A stretch of DNA of 64,000 nucleotides from NCBI GenBank assembly GCA_963823555.1, contig CAWGMA010000001.1:1-64000 (forward strand), written 5' to 3'. Made by a program: the position numbers and the translations under genes. The stretch is from Candidatus Eiseniibacteriota bacterium. Lineage in GTDB: Bacteria > Eisenbacteria > RBG-16-71-46 > CAVPCR01. The notes below the pieces were generated by a model. It saw nothing but the letters and a program-made list of their open reading frames with translations, searched no databases and was not told where the DNA came from. This document shows, in pieces, positions 2,932 through 46,347 of this stretch. Each line of letters begins with the position of its first letter. Within the stretch, counting starts at the first letter, position 1.

Positions 2932-4263
2932 TCAGCGCCCCCTCCAGCGCCTCGCCGGCGCGCGCCGCGCTCGTCCGGTCGACGTCCTCCGTCGGTGTGC
3001 GCGGCGCGACAGGAAGCGCCGCCTCGAACGGCGAGGGCGCGAGGTAGATCCCCGCGCTCGAGCATCGCGTGGAAGAAGCGGCGCGAAGCGCTCGCGGTCG
3101 CACTCGCCGCCGCGTCCCAGTCGGCGACCCGGCCCGCGGTGAAGTAGAGGCAGAACAGCGAGCCGACGCGCTGCACCGTGCCGGCGACCCCGCGCCGCGG
3201 CGAGGGCCTCCCGCATGCCCGGCGCGAGCGGCGCCGAGCGCCTCGAGCCGGTCGTAGAGGCCGGGTCGCGTCGAGCAGGCGCAGCTGCGCGAGCCCGGCG
3301 GCCATCGCGAGCGGGTTCCCCGACAGCGTGCCGGCCTGGTAGACGGGCCCTCCGGGCGCGACCTGCTCCATGAGGTCGCGCCGGCCGCCGTAGGCGCCGA
3401 CCGGCAGGCCGCCGCCGATGATCTTGCCGAGGGTCGTGAGATCGGGTCGGACGCCGTAGAGCTCCTGCGCGCCGCCGCGCGCCAGGCGGAAGCCGGTCAT
3501 CACCTCGTCGAAGATGAGCAGCGCGCCCGTCGCGCGCCGTCAGCTCGCGCAGCCCTCGAGGAAGCCCGGCGCCGGCGGCGACCACGCCCATGTTGCCGGC
3601 CACCGGCTCGACGATGACCGCCGCGATCTCGTCCGGGATTGGCGGCGAAGAGCGCCTCGACCGATCGCAGGTCGTTGTAGCGCGCGGTCAGCGTGTCGGC
3701 GGCCGTGCCCGCCGGCACGCCCGGGGCTCGTCGGCGCGCCGAAGGTGGCCGCGCCCGAGCCGGCCTTGATCAGGAACGCGTCGCCGTGGCCGTGGTAGCA
3801 GCCCTCGAACTTGACGATCTTGGCGCGGCCGGTGGCGGCCCGCGCCAGGCGCACGGCGGTCATCGTGGCCTCGGTGCCGGAGTTGACGAGCCGCACCATC
3901 TCGACCGACGGCACGCAGCTCGCAGATCAGCTCGGCCAGCTCGACCTCGCGCTCGGTGGGCGCGCCGAAGCTCGTGCCGTCGCCGGCCGCCTCGCGCACG
4001 GCCTCGACCACCGCGGGGTGGGCGTGACCGAGGATCATCGGGCCCCAGGAGCCGACGTAGTCGATGTACTCGTTGCCGTCGACGTCCCACGAGCGCGCGC
4101 CCCGGGCGCGCGCGATGAAGGGCGGCGTGCCGCCCACCGCGCCGAAGGCGCGCACCGGCGAGTTGACGCCGCCGGGGATCACGCGCTTGGCGCGCGTCAT
4201 CAGATCTTCGCTTCGGGGCAGCGGTCGCCCGGCCGGCGCTGCCGTGTTCGTCGTTGCCTTCAC
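2932..4263 (-). CDS. hemL: Glutamate-1-semialdehyde 2,1-aminomutase; frameshifted
   Basis: [85 protein letters not shown]. Confidence 0.92.
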
Positions 4264-4275
4264 TCCTTCACTCCT

Positions 4276-5326
<1,051 letters not shown>

Positions 5327-5330
<4 letters not shown>

Positions 5331-7228: not shown

Positions 7229-8200
7229 CTAGGACGCGGGCGACCGGGCGCCGGATCGGAAGGCGGCCTCGACCTCCTTGAGGACCAGGTCGGCCCCGCG
7301 CCCGAGCAGGGTCTCGGCGAGCCCGACTCCCACCGCTTCGGGATCGGACGCGGGCCCAGCGGCTCGATCGCGGAAGACCCGCGTGCCGTCGAGCGCGCAT
7401 ACGACCGCGTCCAGGTGGAGCGTCGTGCCATCGAGGCGACCCAGTGCCCCGGCCGGCACCTGGCAGCCCCCGCGCAGGCGGCGCAGGAAGGCGCGCTCGG
7501 CGCGCACGGCGAGGCGCGTGGGTTCGTGCTCGAGCGGTGCGAGGAGAGCGCCCAGCGCGTCATCGCCGGAGCGACCCTCGATGGCGAGGGCGCCCTGGCC
7601 GACCGCGGGGACGATGACCTTGGACCCGAGCACCTCGGTCACCCGATCCGCGAAGCCGAGCCGCTCGAGTCCGGCCCGCGCGAGCACGATGGCCGTGATG
7701 CCGCCTTCTCCCCGCGTGAGCTTCTCGAGGCGAGTGGGCACGTTTCCTCTCAGGTTATCGAAGGCCAAGTCACCCCGCACCGCGAGAAGTTGCGCCCTTC
7801 GGCGAATGCTCGAAGTTCCGACCAGTGCCCCGTGCGGCAGGGCGGCGAAATCCGATCCGTCACGGCTCAGGAAGGCATCGCGCGGGTCGGCACGCTCGGG
7901 GATGGCGAGGAGATCGAGCCCGGCCGGGAGCGTCGTCTCCATGTCCTTCAGGCTGTGCACCGCGATGTCGGCGCCATCCTCGAGGAGGACCCGTTCCAGC
8001 TCGCGGGTGAAGAGCCCGCGCTCGCCGATGGCTGAGAGGGCGCGGTCGCGCACCTCATCGCCCTTGGTCGAGACCTCGATGATCTCGATCTCGAGCCCGG
8101 GGTGCGCCGCCTCGAGCCGGCCGGCGACATGGTCGGTCTGCCAGCGCGCAAGTCGGCTCTTGCGGGTGGCGATGCGGATCCGCAGCGGATTACTGCCCAT
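7229..8200 (-). CDS. hemC: Hydroxymethylbilane synthase (porphobilinogen deaminase)
   Basis: IRIATRKSRLARWQ, TKGD, GLFTRELE, DIAVHSLKDM, VGTSSIRRRAQL, LRGNVPTRL, PAVGQGAL, LRGGCQVP. Confidence 0.96.
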   Translation of the reverse strand: MGSNPLRIRIATRKSRLARWQTDHVAGRLEAAHPGLEIEIIEVSTKGDEVRDRALSAIGERGLFTRELERVLLEDGADIAVHSLKDMETTLPAGLDLLAIPERADPRDAFLSRDGSDFAALPHGALVGTSSIRRRAQLLAVRGDLAFDNLRGNVPTRLEKLTRGEGGITAIVLARAGLERLGFADRVTEVLGSKVIVPAVGQGALAIEGRSGDDALGALLAPLEHEPTRLAVRAERAFLRRLRGGCQVPAGALGRLDGTTLHLDAVVCALDGTRVFRDRAAGPASDPEAVGVGLAETLLGRGADLVLKEVEAAFRSGARSPAS

Positions 8201-9579
8201 TCCAGGAGTCCCCGGGCCCCGGCCCGCACTCGTCCGCATCGGTCCTGGGGCGACGTGAGCGCCCGCCCTCCTCGTCATCGAGGCCATCGAGCGCGAACAG
8301 CTCGCGCGTGGCGGCAAGCAAGGCGACCGGATTGCCGGCCTCGGGGCGTGGCCGCCGGAGGCGCGTCATCGGTGCGTGGAGGAGCTTGTTGAGGAAGCCG
8401 CGACTCAAGCGCTCGAGCTTCTCATACTCGTCGGGCTCGAGCTTGCCCTTCCAGGCGGCGAGCTCCTCAGCCCGCAGCTGCTCGAAGTGCTCGCGTAGCT
8501 GGCGAATGGTCGAGCCGGCCTCGAGCGATTTCTCCCAGCCGACGTGGCGCTCGACTTCCTCGGCGACGATGGCCTCGACGCGCGGAATCTCGCGGTGCCT
8601 CCGCTCGAGGTTCTTCTGCACGATCGACTCGAGAGCGCTCATGTCATGCACGAAGACGCCTTCGAGCTCGTTCACATTGGGATCGACATCGCGCGGCATG
8701 GCGATGTCGATGAAGACGAGCGGGCGTTTGGCGCGTCCATGCTTCGCCGCGGCGACCTGATCACGGGTGATGACCGGATGCTGGGCCGAGGTTGCGGTGA
8801 CGACGATATCGGCGTCGGCCAGGGCCTGGACCACCTCGCCCAGCGCGATGGCCCGGCCGCCGAGCTCGGCGGCAAGCCGTTCACCGCGCTCGAGCGAGCG
8901 GTTGGCGACGATGATCGAGCCGATCCCTGCTTCCGCGAAGTGGCGCCCGGCGAGGGCCGCCGTTTCTCCGGCACCGACGAGGAGCAGCGTCCGATCCTTC
9001 AAGTCCGAGATAGATCTTCTGCGCCAGGCCGAGCGCGGCGTAGCTCACCGACACCGCCCCCTGCCCGATCTGGGTCTCGGTCCGGGCACGCTTGCCGGCG
9101 CGGAAGGCGGCGCCGAAGAGCTTCCCGAGCAGGGGGCCGGCCGCTCCCTCCTCGGCCGCGAGCGTGAACGCGGTCTTCACCTGGCCGAGGATCTGGACCT
9201 CGCCGACCATGAGCGAGTCGATGCCGGCCGCCACCCGGCACAGGTGAGCCACGGCATCGCGGCCGAACTTGATGAAGATGGCGTCCTCGTTGACCTCGCC
9301 CAGGCTCCGCAACAGCTCGCGGCCGGTGCCCGCCGCCCCCTCGCTTTCCTCGGCGACGAGATAGGCCTCGGTGCGATTACAGGTGGCGATGACGGCCGCC
9401 TCCGCGATGCGCGGGTGGGCGGCGATGGCCTTGAGCGCGCGACGCACGCCGGCGTCATCGAGGGCCGCTTCCTCGAGCTCGTGCATGCTCGCGGAACGGT
9501 GATTGATGCCGACGAGCGTGAGGCTGGCCGGGGCCTGCGCCCGGTTCTGATGCAGGGTGAGATCGTCGATGCGCGCCAT
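8190..9579 (-). CDS. hemA: Glutamyl-tRNA reductase; one frameshift near 9003-9010
   Basis: VGINHRSA, IATCNRTEAY, VAAGIDSLMVGEVQILGQVK, GKRARTET..GAVSVSYAA, then LLVGAGET, VANRSLER, IDIAMPRDVD, NKLLHAPM; ATG 9579 overlaps the upstream TGA. Confidence 0.95.
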
Positions 9580-10424
9580 CAGCCGAGGACCTCGGGAACG
9601 AGGAGGGCGAAGTTGTGGAAGGAGCTGAACAGGATGTGGGCCACGGCCATGGAGAAGATCATGATGGCGAAGCCGACGAGCGAGAAGTAGACGACCCGCC
9701 GCCCGCTCCAGCCGAGCAGGTAATAGGCGCCGAGGCAGAGGCTGTAGACGGCCCACAGCAAGATGGTGAAGATGAACTTGGGATCGCGCCAGACGTCGAG
9801 CCCGAGCCGCGAGGACCAGACGAGCCCGACGGCGATGGCCATGGTGAGAAACACGAGCCCGAAGGCGGCGGCGCGGATGCTCATGACCGCGAGGAGATCC
9901 AGCGAGGGCAAGCGCTCGTAGAGCCGGCCGAAGCGACTCGCCTTGAGCTCGCGGTAGAGGAGCAGGAAGAGGATGCCGTAGGTGGCGGAGACGGCGAAAC
10001 CGGAGTAACCGAGGATGGCCGTACCGGTGTGGAGGCCGAACAGCGGCGAGGAGAGGAGCGGGTTCGTGCTCTCAACGGGCCGCATGAAGGCCGAGGAGAT
10101 GAGCTGGAACACGAAGACGAGCCCGACGACGAATACCCCGGCACCCTGGTTCTTGTGGGTGACCTCGATCACGAGATGAACGACCGCCACGGCGAACGCG
10201 ATCATGGTCATCGATTCGAGCGGGTTGGCGATGGGGTGGCGGTGCATGACGAGCCCACGCAGGATCAAGCTCAGGGCGTGGAGCGCGACAGCGACCATGA
10301 GCCCGCGCGTGGCGAGCTTGTGGGCCAGCGGGTCCTCGCGGATGAACAACCCGAGGTAGTTCATGAAGACGATCGCGTAGGCGATCGGGAGGACGGTACG
10401 TAGGAGATCGAGTAGGGCTTGCAT
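9579..10424 (-). CDS. CcsA/HemX-family multi-pass membrane protein
   Basis: About 8 hydrophobic segments; conserved His (LFGLHTG, terminal SFHNF); RLPSLDLL and WRDPK motifs; directly upstream of hemA. Confidence 0.8.
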   Translation of the reverse strand: MQALLDLLRTVLPIAYAIVFMNYLGLFIREDPLAHKLATRGLMVAVALHALSLILRGLVMHRHPIANPLESMTMIAFAVAVVHLVIEVTHKNQGAGVFVVGLVFVFQLISSAFMRPVESTNPLLSSPLFGLHTGTAILGYSGFAVSATYGILFLLLYRELKASRFGRLYERLPSLDLLAVMSIRAAAFGLVFLTMAIAVGLVWSSRLGLDVWRDPKFIFTILLWAVYSLCLGAYYLLGWSGRRVVYFSLVGFAIMIFSMAVAHILFSSFHNFALLVPEVLG

Positions 10425-10801: not shown

Positions 10802-11215
10802 CTAGTGCTTGCCGGGGGCGAGCTCCACCCCCCGCCGTTCGTAGGTCACGTAGGCCTCGATGGCGATCATCTTCGGGTCATCCAGGGCGAGCTCCTTGCC
10901 CTCGAGCGGATTCCTGAGGCACCAGTTGATCATCTCCCGGAGCGTGGCCACCTTGCCCAGCTGCTGCTGGAACTTGGGGTAGGTCTCCGGGTGGGTGTTG
11001 GTGGCGTTGGGGTGGCACTGGGCGCAGGCGACCCCGTTGGTCCCGAGCTCGGCGCTGGTCCACAGGGCGCGCCCCTGCTCGACCACGCTCATGAACTCCC
11101 CCTCCCAGCGTTTCAGGTCCTCCTCGGTGAACTCATCCCCCTGGGCCGCGACCCCCGCCAATCCCACGGCCAGGATCCCGGCCACGATTCCAGCCTTTGC
11201 CGTCTTCCTCCACAT
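10802..11215 (-). CDS. Small periplasmic monoheme cytochrome c (SoxA/TsdA-domain-like)
   Basis: Signal peptide; one CAQCH heme motif; downstream TYPKF...LREMINWCL resembles the YP...RINxC segment of SoxA/TsdA. Confidence 0.85.
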   Translation of the reverse strand: MWRKTAKAGIVAGILAVGLAGVAAQGDEFTEEDLKRWEGEFMSVVEQGRALWTSAELGTNGVACAQCHPNATNTHPETYPKFQQQLGKVATLREMINWCLRNPLEGKELALDDPKMIAIEAYVTYERRGVELAPGKH

Positions 11216-11236
11216 CGCTCTACCTCCTCCTCGTGA

Positions 11237-12325
11237 CTAGTAGTGGATCTGCGGCGGAATCTGCGCCTTCGGATCCTGGAAAGATTGATCGACGGGTGTT
11301 CCCTTGTTGGGATCGAAGGCCACGATGCGATTGGTGTTGTTGTAGAGGTTGTACTCCATGGCCACGCGCCCGGTCGCGACATTGATGAACTGCCAGCCGG
11401 TCGCATCGCGCTCGAAGAAGGGATCGGCGCGGTTCATGGGCACGGTCAGCTTCGGCAGGTGGGTCTCGGCCTGGGCGTAGCTCTGCGGGTACGGCCAGGG
11501 CCAGGCCGTGGCCATCACCGAGTTGAAGCTCAAGTTCCCGATCTGGTTGTACTGGATCTGATGCACGTGTCCGTAGATCACGTTCACCTTGTTGAAGGGC
11601 TTGAGCAGGGCCTGCACCTCGTCGGCATCCTCGGTCCAGAAATTCCATCCCTTGTAGATCTTCTGGATCGGCGAATGCGAGAACACGACGACGGGCGTCG
11701 ACTTGTCGACCTTGGCGAGGTCGTCCGCGAGCCACTGCCGCTGCTTCTCCCCAACCATGAACGGGGAGCCGTTCGGGTTGTCGAGACCCGCCATCTCCAG
11801 CATGCGCTGCTCGGGAGTGGGCCAGCGATTGAAGGTCCAGTCGTCGTACGTAATGACCGAGTTGAGGACCACGAAGTGCACGCCCTTGTGATCGAAGCTG
11901 TAGTAATGCGGGCCGAACAGCTTCGACCAGTGCTCACCGAGGTCGAGGTAGTAGTCATGCTCGCCCATCACGCAGTGGAGCTTGTAGTTGAGCTTGGACA
12001 GCATCTCCGCTCCATGGTCCAGCTCGGACTTCTTGCCGAGCTGCCCCAGGTCGCCACCGAACATCACGAAGTCGGGCTTGGGCGTGAGCAGATTGGTCTC
12101 TGCCACCGCCCGGATCAGGCCGCGGTCCCAGTTGCGGACGAACCGCCCGCCACCGATCTCCTGGATATGGGCGTCGGAGATGTAGGCGAACGTGAAGTTC
12201 TGGCTCTTGTCGGCAAAGGCGAGCTCGACCAGGCTCACGGGAAGGGCCGATACGGCGGCCAGAGCGCCCGCGGTCTTCATGAAATCGCGCCGGCTCAGTT
12301 TGCTTCCGGTATCGCGCATCTTCAT
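11237..12325 (-). CDS. Tat-exported calcineurin-like metallophosphoesterase
   Basis: Tat motif LSRRDFMK; phosphoesterase motifs SDAH, GGDL, GEHD (variant of GNHD), FSHSP, GHVH. Confidence 0.9.
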   Translation of the reverse strand: MKMRDTGSKLSRRDFMKTAGALAAVSALPVSLVELAFADKSQNFTFAYISDAHIQEIGGGRFVRNWDRGLIRAVAETNLLTPKPDFVMFGGDLGQLGKKSELDHGAEMLSKLNYKLHCVMGEHDYYLDLGEHWSKLFGPHYYSFDHKGVHFVVLNSVITYDDWTFNRWPTPEQRMLEMAGLDNPNGSPFMVGEKQRQWLADDLAKVDKSTPVVVFSHSPIQKIYKGWNFWTEDADEVQALLKPFNKVNVIYGHVHQIQYNQIGNLSFNSVMATAWPWPYPQSYAQAETHLPKLTVPMNRADPFFERDATGWQFINVATGRVAMEYNLYNNTNRIVAFDPNKGTPVDQSFQDPKAQIPPQIHY

Positions 12326-12355
12326 TTCTCCTCTCGTTGGCGCGTGCGGCCGCCG

Positions 12356-13477
12356 CTAGCGGCTGAACTCCGGGCTCGTCAACGCTTCCATGAACGCCAC
12401 CAGATCTTTGATCTGATCCGGATCGAGATCGAGGGGGCGAATCCCTCCGCTCAGGAAGTCGTTGACCGGGTCGGTGGGATTGGTCACCCCACCGTTGTTG
12501 TAGTGCTCCATCACTTCCTCGAGCGTCTTCAGGCTGCCATCGTGCATGTAGGGAGCCGTGACGGCGACATTGCGCAGGGTCGGGGTCTTGAAGGCGCCGA
12601 CGTCATCGAAACCGCGGCTGATGGCGAAGCGGCCGAGCTCCGAGGTGCGCTTGTCGGTGAGCACCTTCTTGTCGACCTCGCTGGCCGTGGCCTTGGCCTC
12701 GAGGAACTCCCCGGCGAGCTCGGGCACCTCGTTCTGGATGCGGTTGATGCCGACCCCGATGTTGTGGAAGCGACTGTCGGTGAAGATCGCCTGCGTCTGC
12801 TCGATGGCGTGACAGGAGACGCAACGGCCATCGCCGACGAAGACCTCGAAGCCGCGCTTCTGGGCGTCCGTCATGGCGTTCTCCTCGCCGCCGAAATACC
12901 AGCGATCGAAGGGGGATCCGCCCGAGATCTGCTTGCGCTCGAAGGCGGCGATGGCCTTCGTGATCTCGTCCATGGTGATGGCGTCACCGCTCTTCCCGAA
13001 GACCTGCTGGAAGGCCTTCTGGTACTCGGGATCGGTGCGCACGATCTCGAGGATCGGGTCGTGGGTCTCGAGACCCATCTCGACGGGATTGAGGAAGGGG
13101 TGGAGCGCCTGGTCCTCGAGGCTCGGCGATCGCCCATCCCAGAACTGCGACTCCATGTAGGCCGCGTTCAGTACCGTCGGTGCATTGCGCGTGCCGGTGA
13201 GCTTCTTGATTCCCTCCGAAACCTGGAGGGGGCTGTCGGTGAACGCCTTCTCGATGGCGTGACATGTCGAGCAGCTCACCTCGCCGGTGGTGCTGAAGCG
13301 AGCGTCGTGGAAGAGCTTTTCCCCGAGCGCGATCTTCTCGGGGGTCTGCGGGTTATCCGCCGGCACCGGGAGCGGCGGCAGCCCGAGCGGAACCTCTGCC
13401 GCCTCCTCGCCGCCGCCAGTGGCGGCGACGCCAAGCGCCGAGAGGGTCACCAGAGCCAGGGCGAGATAGATCTTCAT
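12356..13477 (-). CDS. Di-heme bCCP/MauG-superfamily protein, MauG-type (Tyr at the distal ligand position)
   Basis: Signal peptide; LGEKLFHDARFS..SCSTCH; RNAPTVLN; FWDGR; NPVEMG; CVSCH; FKTPTLRNVAVTAPYMHDG..LEEVMEHY. Confidence 0.92.
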   Translation of the reverse strand: MKIYLALALVTLSALGVAATGGGEEAAEVPLGLPPLPVPADNPQTPEKIALGEKLFHDARFSTTGEVSCSTCHAIEKAFTDSPLQVSEGIKKLTGTRNAPTVLNAAYMESQFWDGRSPSLEDQALHPFLNPVEMGLETHDPILEIVRTDPEYQKAFQQVFGKSGDAITMDEITKAIAAFERKQISGGSPFDRWYFGGEENAMTDAQKRGFEVFVGDGRCVSCHAIEQTQAIFTDSRFHNIGVGINRIQNEVPELAGEFLEAKATASEVDKKVLTDKRTSELGRFAISRGFDDVGAFKTPTLRNVAVTAPYMHDGSLKTLEEVMEHYNNGGVTNPTDPVNDFLSGGIRPLDLDPDQIKDLVAFMEALTSPEFSR

Positions 13478-13926
13478 GGTCTCCTTTCCTCCTCGCGGCA
13501 GTCGTGGCAGATGCCGCGGAGTTGAACGCTGAAATCGACGGTCCGAAAGCCCCAGGTTGAGGTGTCGGGGATGGACAGGGCGTTCAGCCGGTCGTCATGA
13601 AAGTCGCGAATGCGGTCGCAGCGCAGACAGACGAGATGGTGGTGGATCTCGGTGCGGCCGTCGTAACGCACGCCGCGGCCGGGATGGCTGGCCTTGGTGA
13701 TGAGGCCAAGGCGGACGAGGATCTCGAGGGTGCGATAGACGGTGGCCCGCGAGATGCCCGGCAGGCGCCGGGCGACATCGGCGAAGACCTGGTCGGAGGT
13801 GGGATGGTCGTCGCGATCGAGGACCGTCTCGAGAATCAGGCGGCGCTGGATCGTCATGGGAAGACCCATCTCGCGGCAGCCGTGGGCGAACCGCTCGAGT
13901 CGATCCTGTCTCGCGTTCCGATCCAT
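13474..13926 (-). CDS. Fur-family (PerR-like) transcriptional regulator
   Basis: TIQRRLIL, DHPTSDQV, ISRATVYRTL, RYD...HHHLVCLRC, GICHDC; ATGA overlap with the di-heme gene. Confidence 0.92.
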   Translation of the reverse strand: MDRNARQDRLERFAHGCREMGLPMTIQRRLILETVLDRDDHPTSDQVFADVARRLPGISRATVYRTLEILVRLGLITKASHPGRGVRYDGRTEIHHHLVCLRCDRIRDFHDDRLNALSIPDTSTWGFRTVDFSVQLRGICHDCREEERRP

Positions 13927-13949
13927 GCCGATCCCCTGGGGAGACGCGG

Positions 13950-13966
13950 TTGCGACAATATCTCAT
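13950..13966. promoter_or_regulatory. Candidate Fur-family operator (autoregulatory)
   Basis: ATGAGA-TATTG-TCGCAA on the minus strand, about 24 bp upstream of the regulator ATG; same 6-5-6 form as the site at 46331-46347. Confidence 0.45.
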
Positions 13967-14017: not shown

Positions 14018-14581
14018 CTACCGGATCTCGCTCACGACGGTCTGGAAGGGAATGCGGGGCGGGTCGGGCAGGGGATGGGGGACGGCCGGGGTCCGGGCCT
14101 CGACGACCAGCGAGGCCGGAGCGCTGGCCGCGTCCGCCGGAGCCGAGGGGGCGACCGGGATCTGTACTGTTTGCCGGCCGGCCCAGAAGCCGGTCAGGAA
14201 GAGAACCAGAAGCAGCGCGGTGGCCGCCAGAGCGGGGACGAGGCTCGCGCCGAAGCGCCGGAAGCGGGAACCCACAGCCCCTGATGGGCGGCGGTCGTCA
14301 GCATGCGCCACTTCGTGATGCGAGGCGATCGCCGGTTGCCTCGCCGCGTGGAGCGCCGCCTGCTCAGCCATGAGATCGACGAGGATGCGCGCCGGCGCCT
14401 CGGAGCTCCGGCTCTCGCGGAACTGGCGTATCGCGCGGGCGAGGGTCCTCACCACTTCCGCGCAGCGGGGACACGCTTCGAGGTGCTCCTCGATCTCGAC
14501 GCGCTCTTCCCCTTCGAGTCCTTCCATCTCATCGAGTGCGCGGGCGATCAGGAGATCGTCGGCTGGATGTCGATCGTTCAT
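14018..14581 (-). CDS. Zinc-finger (HxxxCxxC) membrane anti-sigma factor
   Basis: EEHLEACPRC; one TM segment (ALLLVLFLTGFWAG); coupled to the sigma gene by an ATGA overlap. Confidence 0.85.
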   Translation of the reverse strand: MNDRHPADDLLIARALDEMEGLEGEERVEIEEHLEACPRCAEVVRTLARAIRQFRESRSSEAPARILVDLMAEQAALHAARQPAIASHHEVAHADDRRPSGAVGSRFRRFGASLVPALAATALLLVLFLTGFWAGRQTVQIPVAPSAPADAASAPASLVVEARTPAVPHPLPDPPRIPFQTVVSEIR

Positions 14582-15204
14582 CTCGGTTCGACCTTTCCCG
14601 GAGGTCTGACGCCTCCCGGTGGATTCGTTCCTTCCGACCTCGACGGCGGGGCCCCGAAACCAGCGCGGGTGAGCGCCTGGCGGATGCGTTTCAGGCTGTG
14701 GTGAACCCGCGAGCGCAGGGTGCCCTCGGGTTCGTCGCAGATCACGGCCATCTCCCTGTAAGAGAAGCCCTCGCTTACTCGCAGGTGGAATGCCATGGCG
14801 TAGGACGGTGGCAGGTCGGTGAGCGCCGAGTCGATGAGCGCCACGATCTCCTGCCGGGCCAGTTCCTCGACCGGATCGATGCGGTGTCGTGCGGCGAGCG
14901 CTTCGGCCACCACGGCCGCCAGTTCCCCGCGCCGTTTCCTTTGCTTCAGACGATCCAGAGCGAGATGGGTGGCGACCGTGTAGAGCCAGGCGCGGAACCG
15001 TCCCTGTCCCTCGTAGTGCCCCTGACCCGCGAAGATCCGCAAGAAGACTTCGTGCAGGACGTCCTCGGCATCGGATCGCTCACCGAGGACGCGGCTCAGG
15101 TAGCCGAGGAGACCCGGAGCGAAGCGCTGATAGAGGATCGCCAGCGCCCGGGGGTCTCCGTGGCGACTCCTTGCGGCGAGAAGGTCATCGTCTTCTAGAG
15201 CCAC
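14578..15204 (-). CDS. ECF sigma-70 factor
   Basis: Probable GTG start at 15204; DAEDVLHEVF, FRAWLYTVATH, region 4 FHLRVSEGFSYREMA...GTLRSRVH. Confidence 0.92.
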   Translation of the reverse strand: MALEDDDLLAARSRHGDPRALAILYQRFAPGLLGYLSRVLGERSDAEDVLHEVFLRIFAGQGHYEGQGRFRAWLYTVATHLALDRLKQRKRRGELAAVVAEALAARHRIDPVEELARQEIVALIDSALTDLPPSYAMAFHLRVSEGFSYREMAVICDEPEGTLRSRVHHSLKRIRQALTRAGFGAPPSRSEGTNPPGGVRPPGKVEPR

Positions 15205-16514
15205 GGATCCATCTCCCGGCTCTCGGGGTCGAGCTCCTTCCAGTACCGCGCCAGCTGCTTGACCGTCCCTTGATCGTCGTGAAAGTCGAGGATCTCGATC
15301 GCCGACCGGAGAGCAAAGGCGACCTGGGCGCGGTCGCCACGCTCGCCGGCATCGGTCGCCAGGACGCGCAGGACGGCCGGGTAGTTCTTCATGATATGCC
15401 GCACGGCCGAGTCCGGCGACCACGGATAGGCGAGATCCGTCGCGCTTTCGAGCCGGAATCCCTCTCGGAAGAGCTCGGAGGTCCGCGCGGCATCGATACC
15501 CGGCTCCTCATCGTCTCCACGCTTGGGCTCCTTCTCGACCCGGAACAGGATGCCCTCGATCTCCAGGTGGCGATCACACGCCTCGAGGTGCTGGGGGGCG
15601 ACGGTGATCGCCAGGTAGACCGGTTTGGTCCAGCGCCCATCCCGCACCTTCTCGAGCAGAGCTTTCATCACCACGGTCGAGAAGGGTGTGAAGGGCTCCC
15701 GGGACGCCTTCATGTCCCGCTGCCAGCGTTCATGAAGATCCCTGATCTCCGCCTTGGTGAAGGGCCCCTTCGCGCCCAATGCGTCGTCCCAGACGTCGAG
15801 GCCGTACTCGATCTTCTGCAGCAAGGATAGATTGACGATCGCGACGTCGGGGCGCATGCCTTGAACGGCCTGCAGCGCCAAGGGTGGGTAGGTGTCGTTG
15901 TCGCCATTGGTGAAGATGACGGCTCCGGGTTCGGCGCTCGACAGCGTGTTGTAGCCATAGTCGAGGAGCGGGGAGGGAATGCCGCCCTTGGCGATGAGAG
16001 ACCGGAGGTGCTCCTTGGCCTCGTCGTGACGGCCGAGGATCGTGCATATCGACCAGAGCGTGAAATGAGGCTCCGGCCAGTCCGGAGCGAGAGCCACGGC
16101 GCGCAAGCCGCGTTCGCGCCCTTCCTCCAGGGATGCGGTCATGGGCTTGCTGCTGAAGAGAGCCGTCTGGCAGATCGCGTCGAGCGCTTCCGGGCAATTG
16201 GGGTCGGTCTCGAAGGCTCTCCGGATCAGTTCCTGCTGTTCCTCGATGGGCGCTCCGGCGTAGCGGAGCGCTCGCGCGAGCTGGACGTCGGCCATGGCCG
16301 ACTCCGGGTGCCGCTTCAGGTAGTCTCGCCATTCGTTCGCGAGCTTCTCGTAGCTCGCCTTCTCGAGGATGGTCACCCGCCACGACAGGATCTCGGGCGG
16401 CATGTCGGCGGTCCAGGACGGCGAGCTGGCAACGGCGCTCCCGGGCCAGGTGACCAGGAGCCCAAGGAGTGCCAGGGTAGCCCCCGTCAGGCCAACTGGG
16501 CGATGGGTATTCAT
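15195..16514 (-). CDS. Secreted TPR protein with a DUF2723/TMEM260-like C-terminal soluble domain
   Basis: Signal peptide; TPR-like helices (RAFETDPNCPEA, RAVALAPDWPEPH); AVIFTNGDNDTYP...RPDVAIVNLSLL motif. Confidence 0.7.
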   Translation of the reverse strand: MNTHRPVGLTGATLALLGLLVTWPGSAVASSPSWTADMPPEILSWRVTILEKASYEKLANEWRDYLKRHPESAMADVQLARALRYAGAPIEEQQELIRRAFETDPNCPEALDAICQTALFSSKPMTASLEEGRERGLRAVALAPDWPEPHFTLWSICTILGRHDEAKEHLRSLIAKGGIPSPLLDYGYNTLSSAEPGAVIFTNGDNDTYPPLALQAVQGMRPDVAIVNLSLLQKIEYGLDVWDDALGAKGPFTKAEIRDLHERWQRDMKASREPFTPFSTVVMKALLEKVRDGRWTKPVYLAITVAPQHLEACDRHLEIEGILFRVEKEPKRGDDEEPGIDAARTSELFREGFRLESATDLAYPWSPDSAVRHIMKNYPAVLRVLATDAGERGDRAQVAFALRSAIEILDFHDDQGTVKQLARYWKELDPESREMDPWL

Positions 16515-16720
16515 ATGCGGCTCCCTCGCGGTCAAAGACGAGATTGTCTCTGCCACCCTTCACAACGATTGGCCAGGCCGAGTCGTTGACCTCGCCGCAT
16601 CGACCCTCGCAGTTACCCTGCAATGAGAATTGCAGATCTGCCGCATTGACGCCCGCCTCCGCAGGCGAGGAGACTGGCATGGGATGCCGACCATGAATCC
16701 TCGACACGGAGGTTGCGGAG

Positions 16721-46330: not shown

Positions 46331-46347
46331 TTGAGACTGGTTCTCAA
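46331..46347. promoter_or_regulatory. Perfect 6-5-6 palindrome (Fur-box-like) in a divergent promoter region
   Basis: TTGAGA-CTGGT-TCTCAA. Confidence 0.45.

Follow-up and report, generated by a model that had tools for sequence, protein, structure and literature searches.

Tyr-ligated bis-Fe(IV) di-heme enzymes of the superfamily of bacterial cytochrome c peroxidases (bCCP) and MauG still have open roles beyond MauG and MbnH, and the function of one of them, BthA, is cryptic. The gene for BthA always adjoins that for a putative purple acid phosphatase, PhosA, whose oxidation was called conceivable (available part of PMC6405878). Here we analyzed a 64,000-nucleotide stretch of a Candidatus Eiseniibacteriota genome (contig CAWGMA010000001.1, hereafter the window), which carries a four-gene operon encoding a Fur-family regulator, a MauG-type di-heme enzyme (named CCP after its Pfam family), a calcineurin-like metallophosphoesterase (MPE) and a small cytochrome c (CYT). 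This PerR-like/CCP/MPE/CYT operon is a real, widespread and uncharacterised three-protein system. We give a probability of about 0.5 to the reading that CCP, MPE and CYT form one periplasmic oxidoreductase with H2O2 as electron sink. No description of the operon was found in the literature searched, which consisted mostly of titles and abstract openings and whose supplements could hold one. In this respect the first-pass annotation, made from the sequence by a model, was right in knowing of no characterised system with this composition; BthA-PhosA had, however, already been proposed as a di-heme/phosphoesterase pair (PMC6405878, in part), even though PhosA belongs to a different MPE subfamily.

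The four genes are tightly packed and co-oriented on the minus strand, as first annotated: those for the regulator and CCP share an ATGA overlap at 13474-13477, and gaps of 30 and 21 bases separate CCP from MPE and MPE from CYT. The interval as first annotated extends to 13966, 40 bases past the start of the regulator gene, and takes in the operator-like palindrome of Table 1. Export of the three cargo proteins was likewise borne out, by a Pfam TAT_signal match of MPE (Tat, twin-arginine translocation) above its cut-off and by Sec-type leaders of CCP and CYT read by eye from the sequence. The operon proteins reached none of the named-protein NCBIfam cut-offs; the Tat-signal domain alone passed.

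A scan of GTDB genomes with MPE gave at least 494 confirmed stretches, the best 80 of which (75-85% identity) were kept, which makes these loci a set of close relatives, not a random draw. CCP, MPE and CYT follow one another in the same order in 76 of the 80, the four exceptions being contig ends (three start just before MPE and one stops just after it), and CYT lies beside MPE in 79. The record titles give 12 phylum names, with eight loci unassigned, and the distribution is patchy: of 151 genomes from the phylum to which the window belongs, two have the triad, counting the window genome itself. In the reverse test, MPE was the next gene for 28 of the 30 best CCP matches in 151 Methylococcales genomes; it was next to every CCP of at least 53% identity (28/28), and the two without it were at 50-52%. 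The first-pass annotation had named a failure of the three genes to co-occur in other genomes as a ground for giving up its proposal; the triad is conserved, and thus they do co-occur. In a Methylotuvimicrobium relative, stranded reads from two runs covered the three genes evenly in the sense direction (depth about 23-93, no gap), a third run yielded one contig spanning just the triad at a depth of 48.7 versus 16.6 and 14.2 alongside, and a fourth gave no coverage of the triad. This coverage fits a modestly expressed operon and is uninformative on induction. The triad of Methylotuvimicrobium is followed by a multi-copy, heavily transcribed repeat region (L031:7548-8283; depth in the thousands, many joints). 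A plasmid of Methylocystis bryophila carries a lone MPE, 68% identical, amid transposases (L081:6905-7981); its Trp277 is replaced by Leu and it is possibly a decaying orphan.

Tyr326 of CCP aligns with the axial ligand Tyr294 of MauG, as judged by alignment only, and among 110 MPE-linked CCPs this residue is kept in 109, while Trp113 and Glu133 are kept in all. The C-terminal region aligns with MbnH and MauG through the Tyr, whereas bCCP alignments end before it, so that the Met/His pattern of a canonical peroxidase was not found. The best full-length match in both sequence and fold was 6e1c, a MauG-like protein of copper homeostasis (Z 21.9, rmsd 3.5, 299 residues aligned), which we take to be MbnH; by fold it tied with bCCPs and MauG, so the classes were not separated, and the pLDDT of the CCP model was middling (72.8). 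The scores of CCP were below the cut-offs of the MauG model (209.8 versus 443.85) and the MbnH model (255.8 versus 362.85). Judged by its residues, CCP is therefore a MauG-type (Tyr-ligated) enzyme, in agreement with the first annotation, yet neither MauG nor MbnH by their models. Genes resembling those of methylamine dehydrogenase (MADH) were not found as recurring neighbors of triad loci, and no neighbor matched the MbnP model. A second di-heme enzyme with Tyr at the ligand position, 41% identical to the window CCP, ends a cluster of ccsA/resB-like and multiheme cytochrome genes with no MPE alongside (G000 C4 286245-291903). Tyr-type di-heme enzymes of two other genomes adjoin PF04185 phosphoesterases or a purple-acid-phosphatase-like PhosA (L196:1-2682, L198:3-2598, L199:44-2667), and the pairing of a di-heme with a phosphoesterase seems to have arisen several times.

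The fold of MPE is nearest to those of GpdQ (Z 23.4) and Rv0805 (Z 22.2), with SoxB (2wdc) at Z 12.2. It shows the fold and the DxH, GD, H and GHxH ligands of class III phosphodiesterases, its dimetal ligands being Asp51, His53, Asp92, Glu122, His217, His253 and His255, and it has a Trp cluster at 227/230/275/277. Its single domain of 362 residues differs from the two-domain, 5'-nucleotidase-type architecture of SoxB, and its score against the CpdA model was 27.3, below the cut-off of 225. Glu122 replaces the canonical Asn ligand of GNH[D/E] in 189 of 189 aligned relatives, hereafter GEHD proteins, which keep the other dimetal ligands. Among the structural matches listed there was no solved GEHD protein, the ESM atlas returned generic names only, and the parts of PMC6180224 and PMC6277846 available contain no data on these genes. 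SMb20593 of S. meliloti was dropped as a candidate MPE, as its identity could not be shown.

What sets the GEHD proteins apart is their company: every GEHD-type MPE examined adjoins or is fused to an electron carrier. Fusions were found with cupredoxin (P0219, a 13-member cluster; P0217; P0261), Rieske (P0230) and CCP (P0271, P0272) domains, while ten long GNHD relatives lack redox Pfam domains of this kind. The two CCP-MPE fusions are 75% identical to each other and have lost the twin arginines; a cleavable leader remnant may remain. In a sister clade, found with the MPE protein of a Phyllobacterium plasmid and represented by 80 metagenome loci, CYT follows MPE in all 65 loci with downstream sequence, and the gene before MPE encodes a C-x2-H-x-W-M (CxxHxWM) protein in all 55 with upstream room, the motif being present in 71 of 72. 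This motif likely forms a blue-copper site. Neighbors in the 80 loci include ccoN-like (49), SCO (23), ALAS (16), SoxYZ-like (26, most with a GGC arm) and rhodanese (5) genes. A distant CCP-type match lies more than 2.5 kb upstream in two of them, and of three whole sister-clade genomes G478 and G1044 gave no CCP_MauG match and G982 a shortened gene. In an outer clade, 12 of the 16 loci have a cupredoxin domain and the other four a cytochrome c motif, and none has CYT. The tree neither supports nor rejects the CCP-linked MPEs as one clade. The constant tie of MPE to electron carriers is our chief reason for reading it as a redox enzyme. It was first proposed that CYT is the electron partner of CCP, and this was not supported: CYT follows MPE instead, in 65 of 65 loci of a clade without the di-heme gene. 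One sister-clade SoxY-SoxZ fusion, with its GGC arm kept, also matches the Desulfoferrodoxin model (L170:5660-6484; E 3e-9).

The core of the first-pass annotation was that CCP installs a Trp-derived cofactor in MPE. In this scheme, bis-Fe(IV) CCP activated by H2O2 would oxidise an MPE Trp once and at long range, to kynurenine or a quinone (Trp275/Trp277 of a W-P-W motif, or Trp227), and CYT would serve the matured enzyme. CCP does keep Tyr326, Trp113 and Glu133, and is strictly paired with MPE (28/28 at 53% identity or above) and twice fused to it; the MPE W-P-W is almost invariant, and the kynurenine of MbnP lies in a conserved WxW motif (PMC11951088, in part). The distribution of the tryptophans argues otherwise. 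Trp133, 198, 227, 230, 275 and 277 are common to CCP-linked and sister-clade MPEs, with W-P-W and Trp227/230 equally kept in 83 sister-clade proteins without an adjacent CCP, and two of the three sister-clade genomes have no CCP_MauG match at all. Only the closest MPE group has Trp66 and Trp168 without exception; another CCP-linked group lacks both, and Trp66 is Phe in 9 of 9 members of one CCP-linked subgroup. Hence no Trp is shared by every CCP-linked clade while missing elsewhere, and none marks CCP linkage. Trp275 and Trp277 instead track CYT, being present in 173/173 and 172/173 CYT-linked MPEs and in 0/16 others. On the CCP side, the place of the MauG relay residue Trp199, two residues before the second CxxCH, is held by Gly in 103 and Ala in 7 of the 110 proteins. 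We therefore regard one-off maturation of MPE as unlikely, and the interpretation as first proposed as partly supported overall.

Structure prediction, suggested by the same annotation, gave a single assembly: the three mature chains folded together scored 0.76, against 0.14 for the best of three controls. In the calibration, 116 of the 157 solved complexes and 2 of the 215 mismatched pairs attain the mark used. Agreement between runs was 61% of contacts or more, with a partner pLDDT of 84 or above. In the model CCP residues 218, 221 and 340-347, on the face of the second heme, contact the MPE helix 63-81 (full-length numbering), and CYT 66-70, in the heme motif, and Cys99 contact MPE Trp227, Trp275-Pro278 and 180-183. 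Two of the CCP interface residues are conserved in the MPE-linked proteins (Gly345 in 110/110, Arg347 in 109/110), and Arg347 is found in 0 of 7 unlinked CCPs. Direct contact of CCP with MPE is thus predicted. For the maturation scheme the model cuts both ways, since MPE is docked on CCP beside the second CxxCH, the site of Trp199 in MauG, while W-P-W faces CYT and not CCP. Overall it fits a wired trimer and a long-range maturase alike.

CYT matches best to the first of the two heme domains in di-heme SoxA. Its Cys99, which follows CxxCH as the distal Cys of this fold, aligns with the TsdA heme ligand Cys123 and is invariant (33/33), and in the model it touches MPE. A Sox-like relay can be imagined in which Cys99 would let go of the heme to take up sulfite or a sulfane as an S-sulfonate, as in TsdA, the adduct would be hydrolysed by MPE in the manner of SoxB, and the electrons would pass to CCP/H2O2 or the oxidase. 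Sulfite does turn the TsdA Cys into an S-sulfonate and raises the heme potential (PMC9562282, in part), MPE keeps the hydrolytic His123, and sulfur genes occur in the sister clade, in the form of the SoxYZ-like and rhodanese genes counted above and of a sulfide-dehydrogenase flavoprotein present in one sister-clade locus and in L084. Nevertheless, Arg119, Arg109 and Ser127 of the TsdA anion pocket correspond to Met95, Gln85 and Pro103 in CYT, each invariant (33/33), Arg119 having been described as invariant in TsdA and SoxA (PMC4423706, in part). SoxY had no match in the window genome (92.5% complete) or in three of five other triad genomes. Because the thiosulfate-binding arginines are absent and SoxY was not found, a standard Sox or Tsd role for this CYT clade is unlikely. 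As, moreover, MPE is far nearer to GpdQ/Rv0805 than to SoxB and the outer clade pairs with cupredoxins without CYT, such a thiolate relay seems to us decidedly improbable.

All five metal ligands of Bacillus subtilis PerR are present in the regulator. Asp108 occupies the H2O2-sensing position in 34 of 34 aligned sequences, and Arg65 the DNA-reading position (33/34). The equivalents of these positions are diagnostic, Asp104 for H2O2 sensitivity and Asn61 for reading of the PerR box (PMC8638851, in part). Its score against the PerR model was 86.3, below the cut-off of 200. By these residues it is a hybrid with a PerR-type sensing site and a Fur-type reading head, consistent at the sequence level with the peroxide-type control first suggested. 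A Fur-family match accompanies 34 of the 80 close loci. Of 27 upstream regions, 11 contain the palindrome found ahead of the regulator with at most one mismatch, versus 0.03 in shuffles, for a consensus drawn by eye from the same set, and a matrix from which the copy at 13950-13966 was left out still ranks that copy first in the genome. The sole other strong operator-like site (46331-46347) lies between two divergent genes for secreted proteins with C-terminal FlgD-like tails; with none before ccsA, a PerR regulon in this genome was dropped as an idea. A short LysR fragment upstream in some gammaproteobacteria consists of the helix-turn-helix alone and cannot be named OxyR, and two-Cys OxyR-like regulators stand by 7 of the 80 sister-clade loci.

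Such control, together with the KatG, bacterioferritin-like and encapsulin-ferritin genes that recur near some loci, would also suit ordinary co-regulation of a peroxide-scavenging peroxidase and its donor cytochrome with an unrelated periplasmic phosphodiesterase, hydrolase being what the Pfam names and fold matches of MPE indicate. The Tyr rather than Met ligation of CCP, the attachment of CYT to MPE and not to CCP, the CCP-MPE fusions and predicted direct complex, and the 75-85% identity across phyla make this extremely improbable. Another role for CCP, or for the copper/oxidase branch of the sister clade, would be to set the oxidation state of the MPE dimetal site, e.g. Fe(III)-M(II), making MPE a redox-gated phosphoesterase. 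Tyr-ligated di-hemes do pair repeatedly with phosphoesterases (BthA-PhosA, PMC6405878, in part, and two others with PF04185 enzymes), and the extra carboxylate of Glu122 would favor a trivalent metal. The presence of a dedicated oxidase, SCO, a gene for heme synthesis and fused carriers points to a continuous flux and not a one-off activation, and no phosphate-uptake genes recur among the neighbors; we consider the activase very unlikely.

For the peroxide-linked oxidoreductase, we propose that the Glu-modified dimetal MPE, capped by Cys-ligated CYT, would oxidise a small substrate, and that Tyr-ligated CCP would take the electrons and reduce H2O2; redox turnover at the dimetal site and this direction of electron flow are what we infer. 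The PerR-like repressor would switch the operon on under peroxide. The PerR-type Asp of the regulator, the OxyR-like regulators of some sister-clade loci and the KatG, bacterioferritin-like and encapsulin-ferritin neighbors favor such a link to peroxide. With an external donor, the Tyr-ligated BthA turns over H2O2 (PMC6405878, in part). CCP would be an exchangeable sink: in the sister clade a cbb3-type O2 reductase and the protein with the likely blue-copper site take its place, and in the outer clade a cupredoxin or cytochrome c. As the MPE site keeps the layout that binds phosphoesters, our guess at the substrate, the weak step of the proposal, is a sulfite-like compound, either an oxyanion of low potential or a reduced species of sulfur. 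More broadly, the GEHD proteins might be a calcineurin-like family turned oxidoreductase, combining a dimetal site, a Trp cluster and a thiolate heme with interchangeable sinks (di-heme/H2O2, or blue copper plus cbb3/O2); this generalization is tentative.

Several observations weigh against this proposal. The hydrolytic residues of MPE are all kept, His123 included, so MPE may still hydrolyse, and its almost invariant W-P-W recalls the WxW motif that holds the MbnP kynurenine. The complex was predicted from three chains without hemes and with custom alignments, unlike the calibration set; its score falls to 0.14 when CCP is replaced, so that confidence does not extend to the contact of MPE with CYT by itself, and the predictor may have carried the CCP face over from MauG complexes. 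The blue-copper reading of the swapped gene comes from the motif and weak matches (E 0.056), the absence of CCP in the sister clade from three whole genomes whose completeness was not established, and the tree is silent on CCP loss there (approximately unbiased test, AU p 0.53). The second operator-like site of the genome is not near a stress gene. We know of no member of the GEHD family with known activity, metal or substrate. The Tyr-ligated di-hemes characterised so far, three in all, perform poorly as dye-linked peroxidases, and two of them modify proteins (PMC11892367, in part), which speaks against a plain sink. His/Cys hemes, whose potentials are very low (PMC9562282, in part), would fit awkwardly into a simple relay.

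The coordinates of the operon and its surroundings are given in Table 1. The first-pass annotation placed the operon directly upstream of a heme operon, and in the window this is so, the ccsA-like gene (10424-9579) being followed by hemA/C/D/B. As a conserved trait the link is ruled out: CcsA was found in 0 of 80 related loci, and a single HemA-like match was 3.5 kb off. A sigma-70-like site at 10680-10653 (one found versus 0.5 expected) weakly suggests a separate promoter for the heme cluster. In that cluster hemA and hemB are each split into two overlapping frames and a hemL-like frame drifts after about 115 residues (window 8190-9756, 4276-5330, 3688-4263), breaks which probably reflect single-base errors in the assembly and not pseudogenes. 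Immediately upstream of the regulator (14018-16556, minus strand) lie genes for an ECF (extracytoplasmic function) sigma factor, a zf-HC2 anti-sigma factor and a TPR-like (tetratricopeptide repeat) protein; ECF pairs precede 14 of the 80 sister-clade loci.

Table 1. The operon and adjoining features in the window.
Feature	Positions	Strand	Remarks
Operator-like palindrome, TGAGAY-N3-RTCTCA type	13950..13966	.	24 bases before regulator start; likely autoregulatory Fur-family box
Fur-family regulator, 150 aa	13474..13926	-	Pfam FUR; PerR-type metal site His41, Asp89, His95, His97, Asp108; Fur-type DNA-reading Arg65
MauG-type di-heme enzyme (CCP), 373 aa	12356..13477	-	Pfam CCP_MauG; two CxxCH, Trp113, Glu133, axial Tyr326; no Trp199 equivalent
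Tat-exported calcineurin-like dimetal protein (MPE), 362 aa	11237..12325	-	Pfam Metallophos and TAT_signal; GEHD for GNHD
Monoheme cytochrome c (CYT), SoxA/TsdA fold, 137 aa	10802..11215	-	Pfam SoxA-TsdA_cyt-c; CxxCH 64-68; Cys99 likely axial ligand
ccsA-like cytochrome c assembly gene, heads heme-synthesis cluster	9579..10424	-	Adjacent here; outside the conserved unit

If the proposal is true, CCP would be the first Tyr-ligated bCCP/MauG member to belong permanently to a redox chain as one of its subunits, instead of serving as a maturase. Either outcome would be new: a third protein-derived Trp cofactor from the superfamily, or a redox enzyme built on a metallophosphoesterase fold. The subfamily is widespread, has a fixed partner and named candidate residues, comes with a natural control in the sister clade without the di-heme, and is found in cultivable methanotrophs and rhizobia, while proteins of the MPE type are now annotated as phosphodiesterases in thousands of genomes.

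Compared with known systems, the locus shares features with several. With TsdA/SoxAX, SoxB and SoxYZ it has in common a cytochrome of the His/Cys fold, a dimetal protein of the SoxB superfamily and, in part of the sister clade, SoxYZ-like carriers; it differs in that CYT lacks the anion-binding arginines, MPE is of the GpdQ/Rv0805 branch and SoxY was not found in the window genome. GpdQ and Rv0805, class III phosphodiesterases, have the same fold, six of the seven metal ligands and the catalytic His, whereas MPE shows Glu for the Asn ligand, 16-19% identity, Tat export and constant redox partners. In the MauG/pre-methylamine dehydrogenase/amicyanin system, the equivalents of Tyr294, Trp93 and Glu113 are those kept in CCP, and relatives of MPE pair with amicyanin-like cupredoxins, but CCP is below the model cut-off and without Trp199, and no MADH genes were seen among the neighbors. 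MbnH/MbnP (6e1c; PMC11951088, in part) resembles the triad in the Tyr ligand, the inter-heme Trp and a partner with a conserved WxW; the partner in the triad is, however, a dimetal MPE and not MbnP, a third protein is always present, and the WxW persists without the di-heme. The nearest precedent is BthA-PhosA of Burkholderia (PDB 6nx0), where a Tyr/His-ligated di-heme is encoded beside an exported calcineurin-like phosphoesterase and oxidation of the partner was proposed. BthA has Ser at the place of the inter-heme Trp, which is Trp113 in CCP (110/110), and no His/Cys cytochrome is described for that pair. The PhosA-type protein encoded beside a BthA orthologue shows GDxxY and GNHE in a purple-acid-phosphatase layout, with Gln95 of MPE at the PhosA Tyr, and matches MPE over 25 residues only (E 0.006). 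The two are nearly unalignable, and BthA-PhosA is therefore a precedent in kind, not in family.

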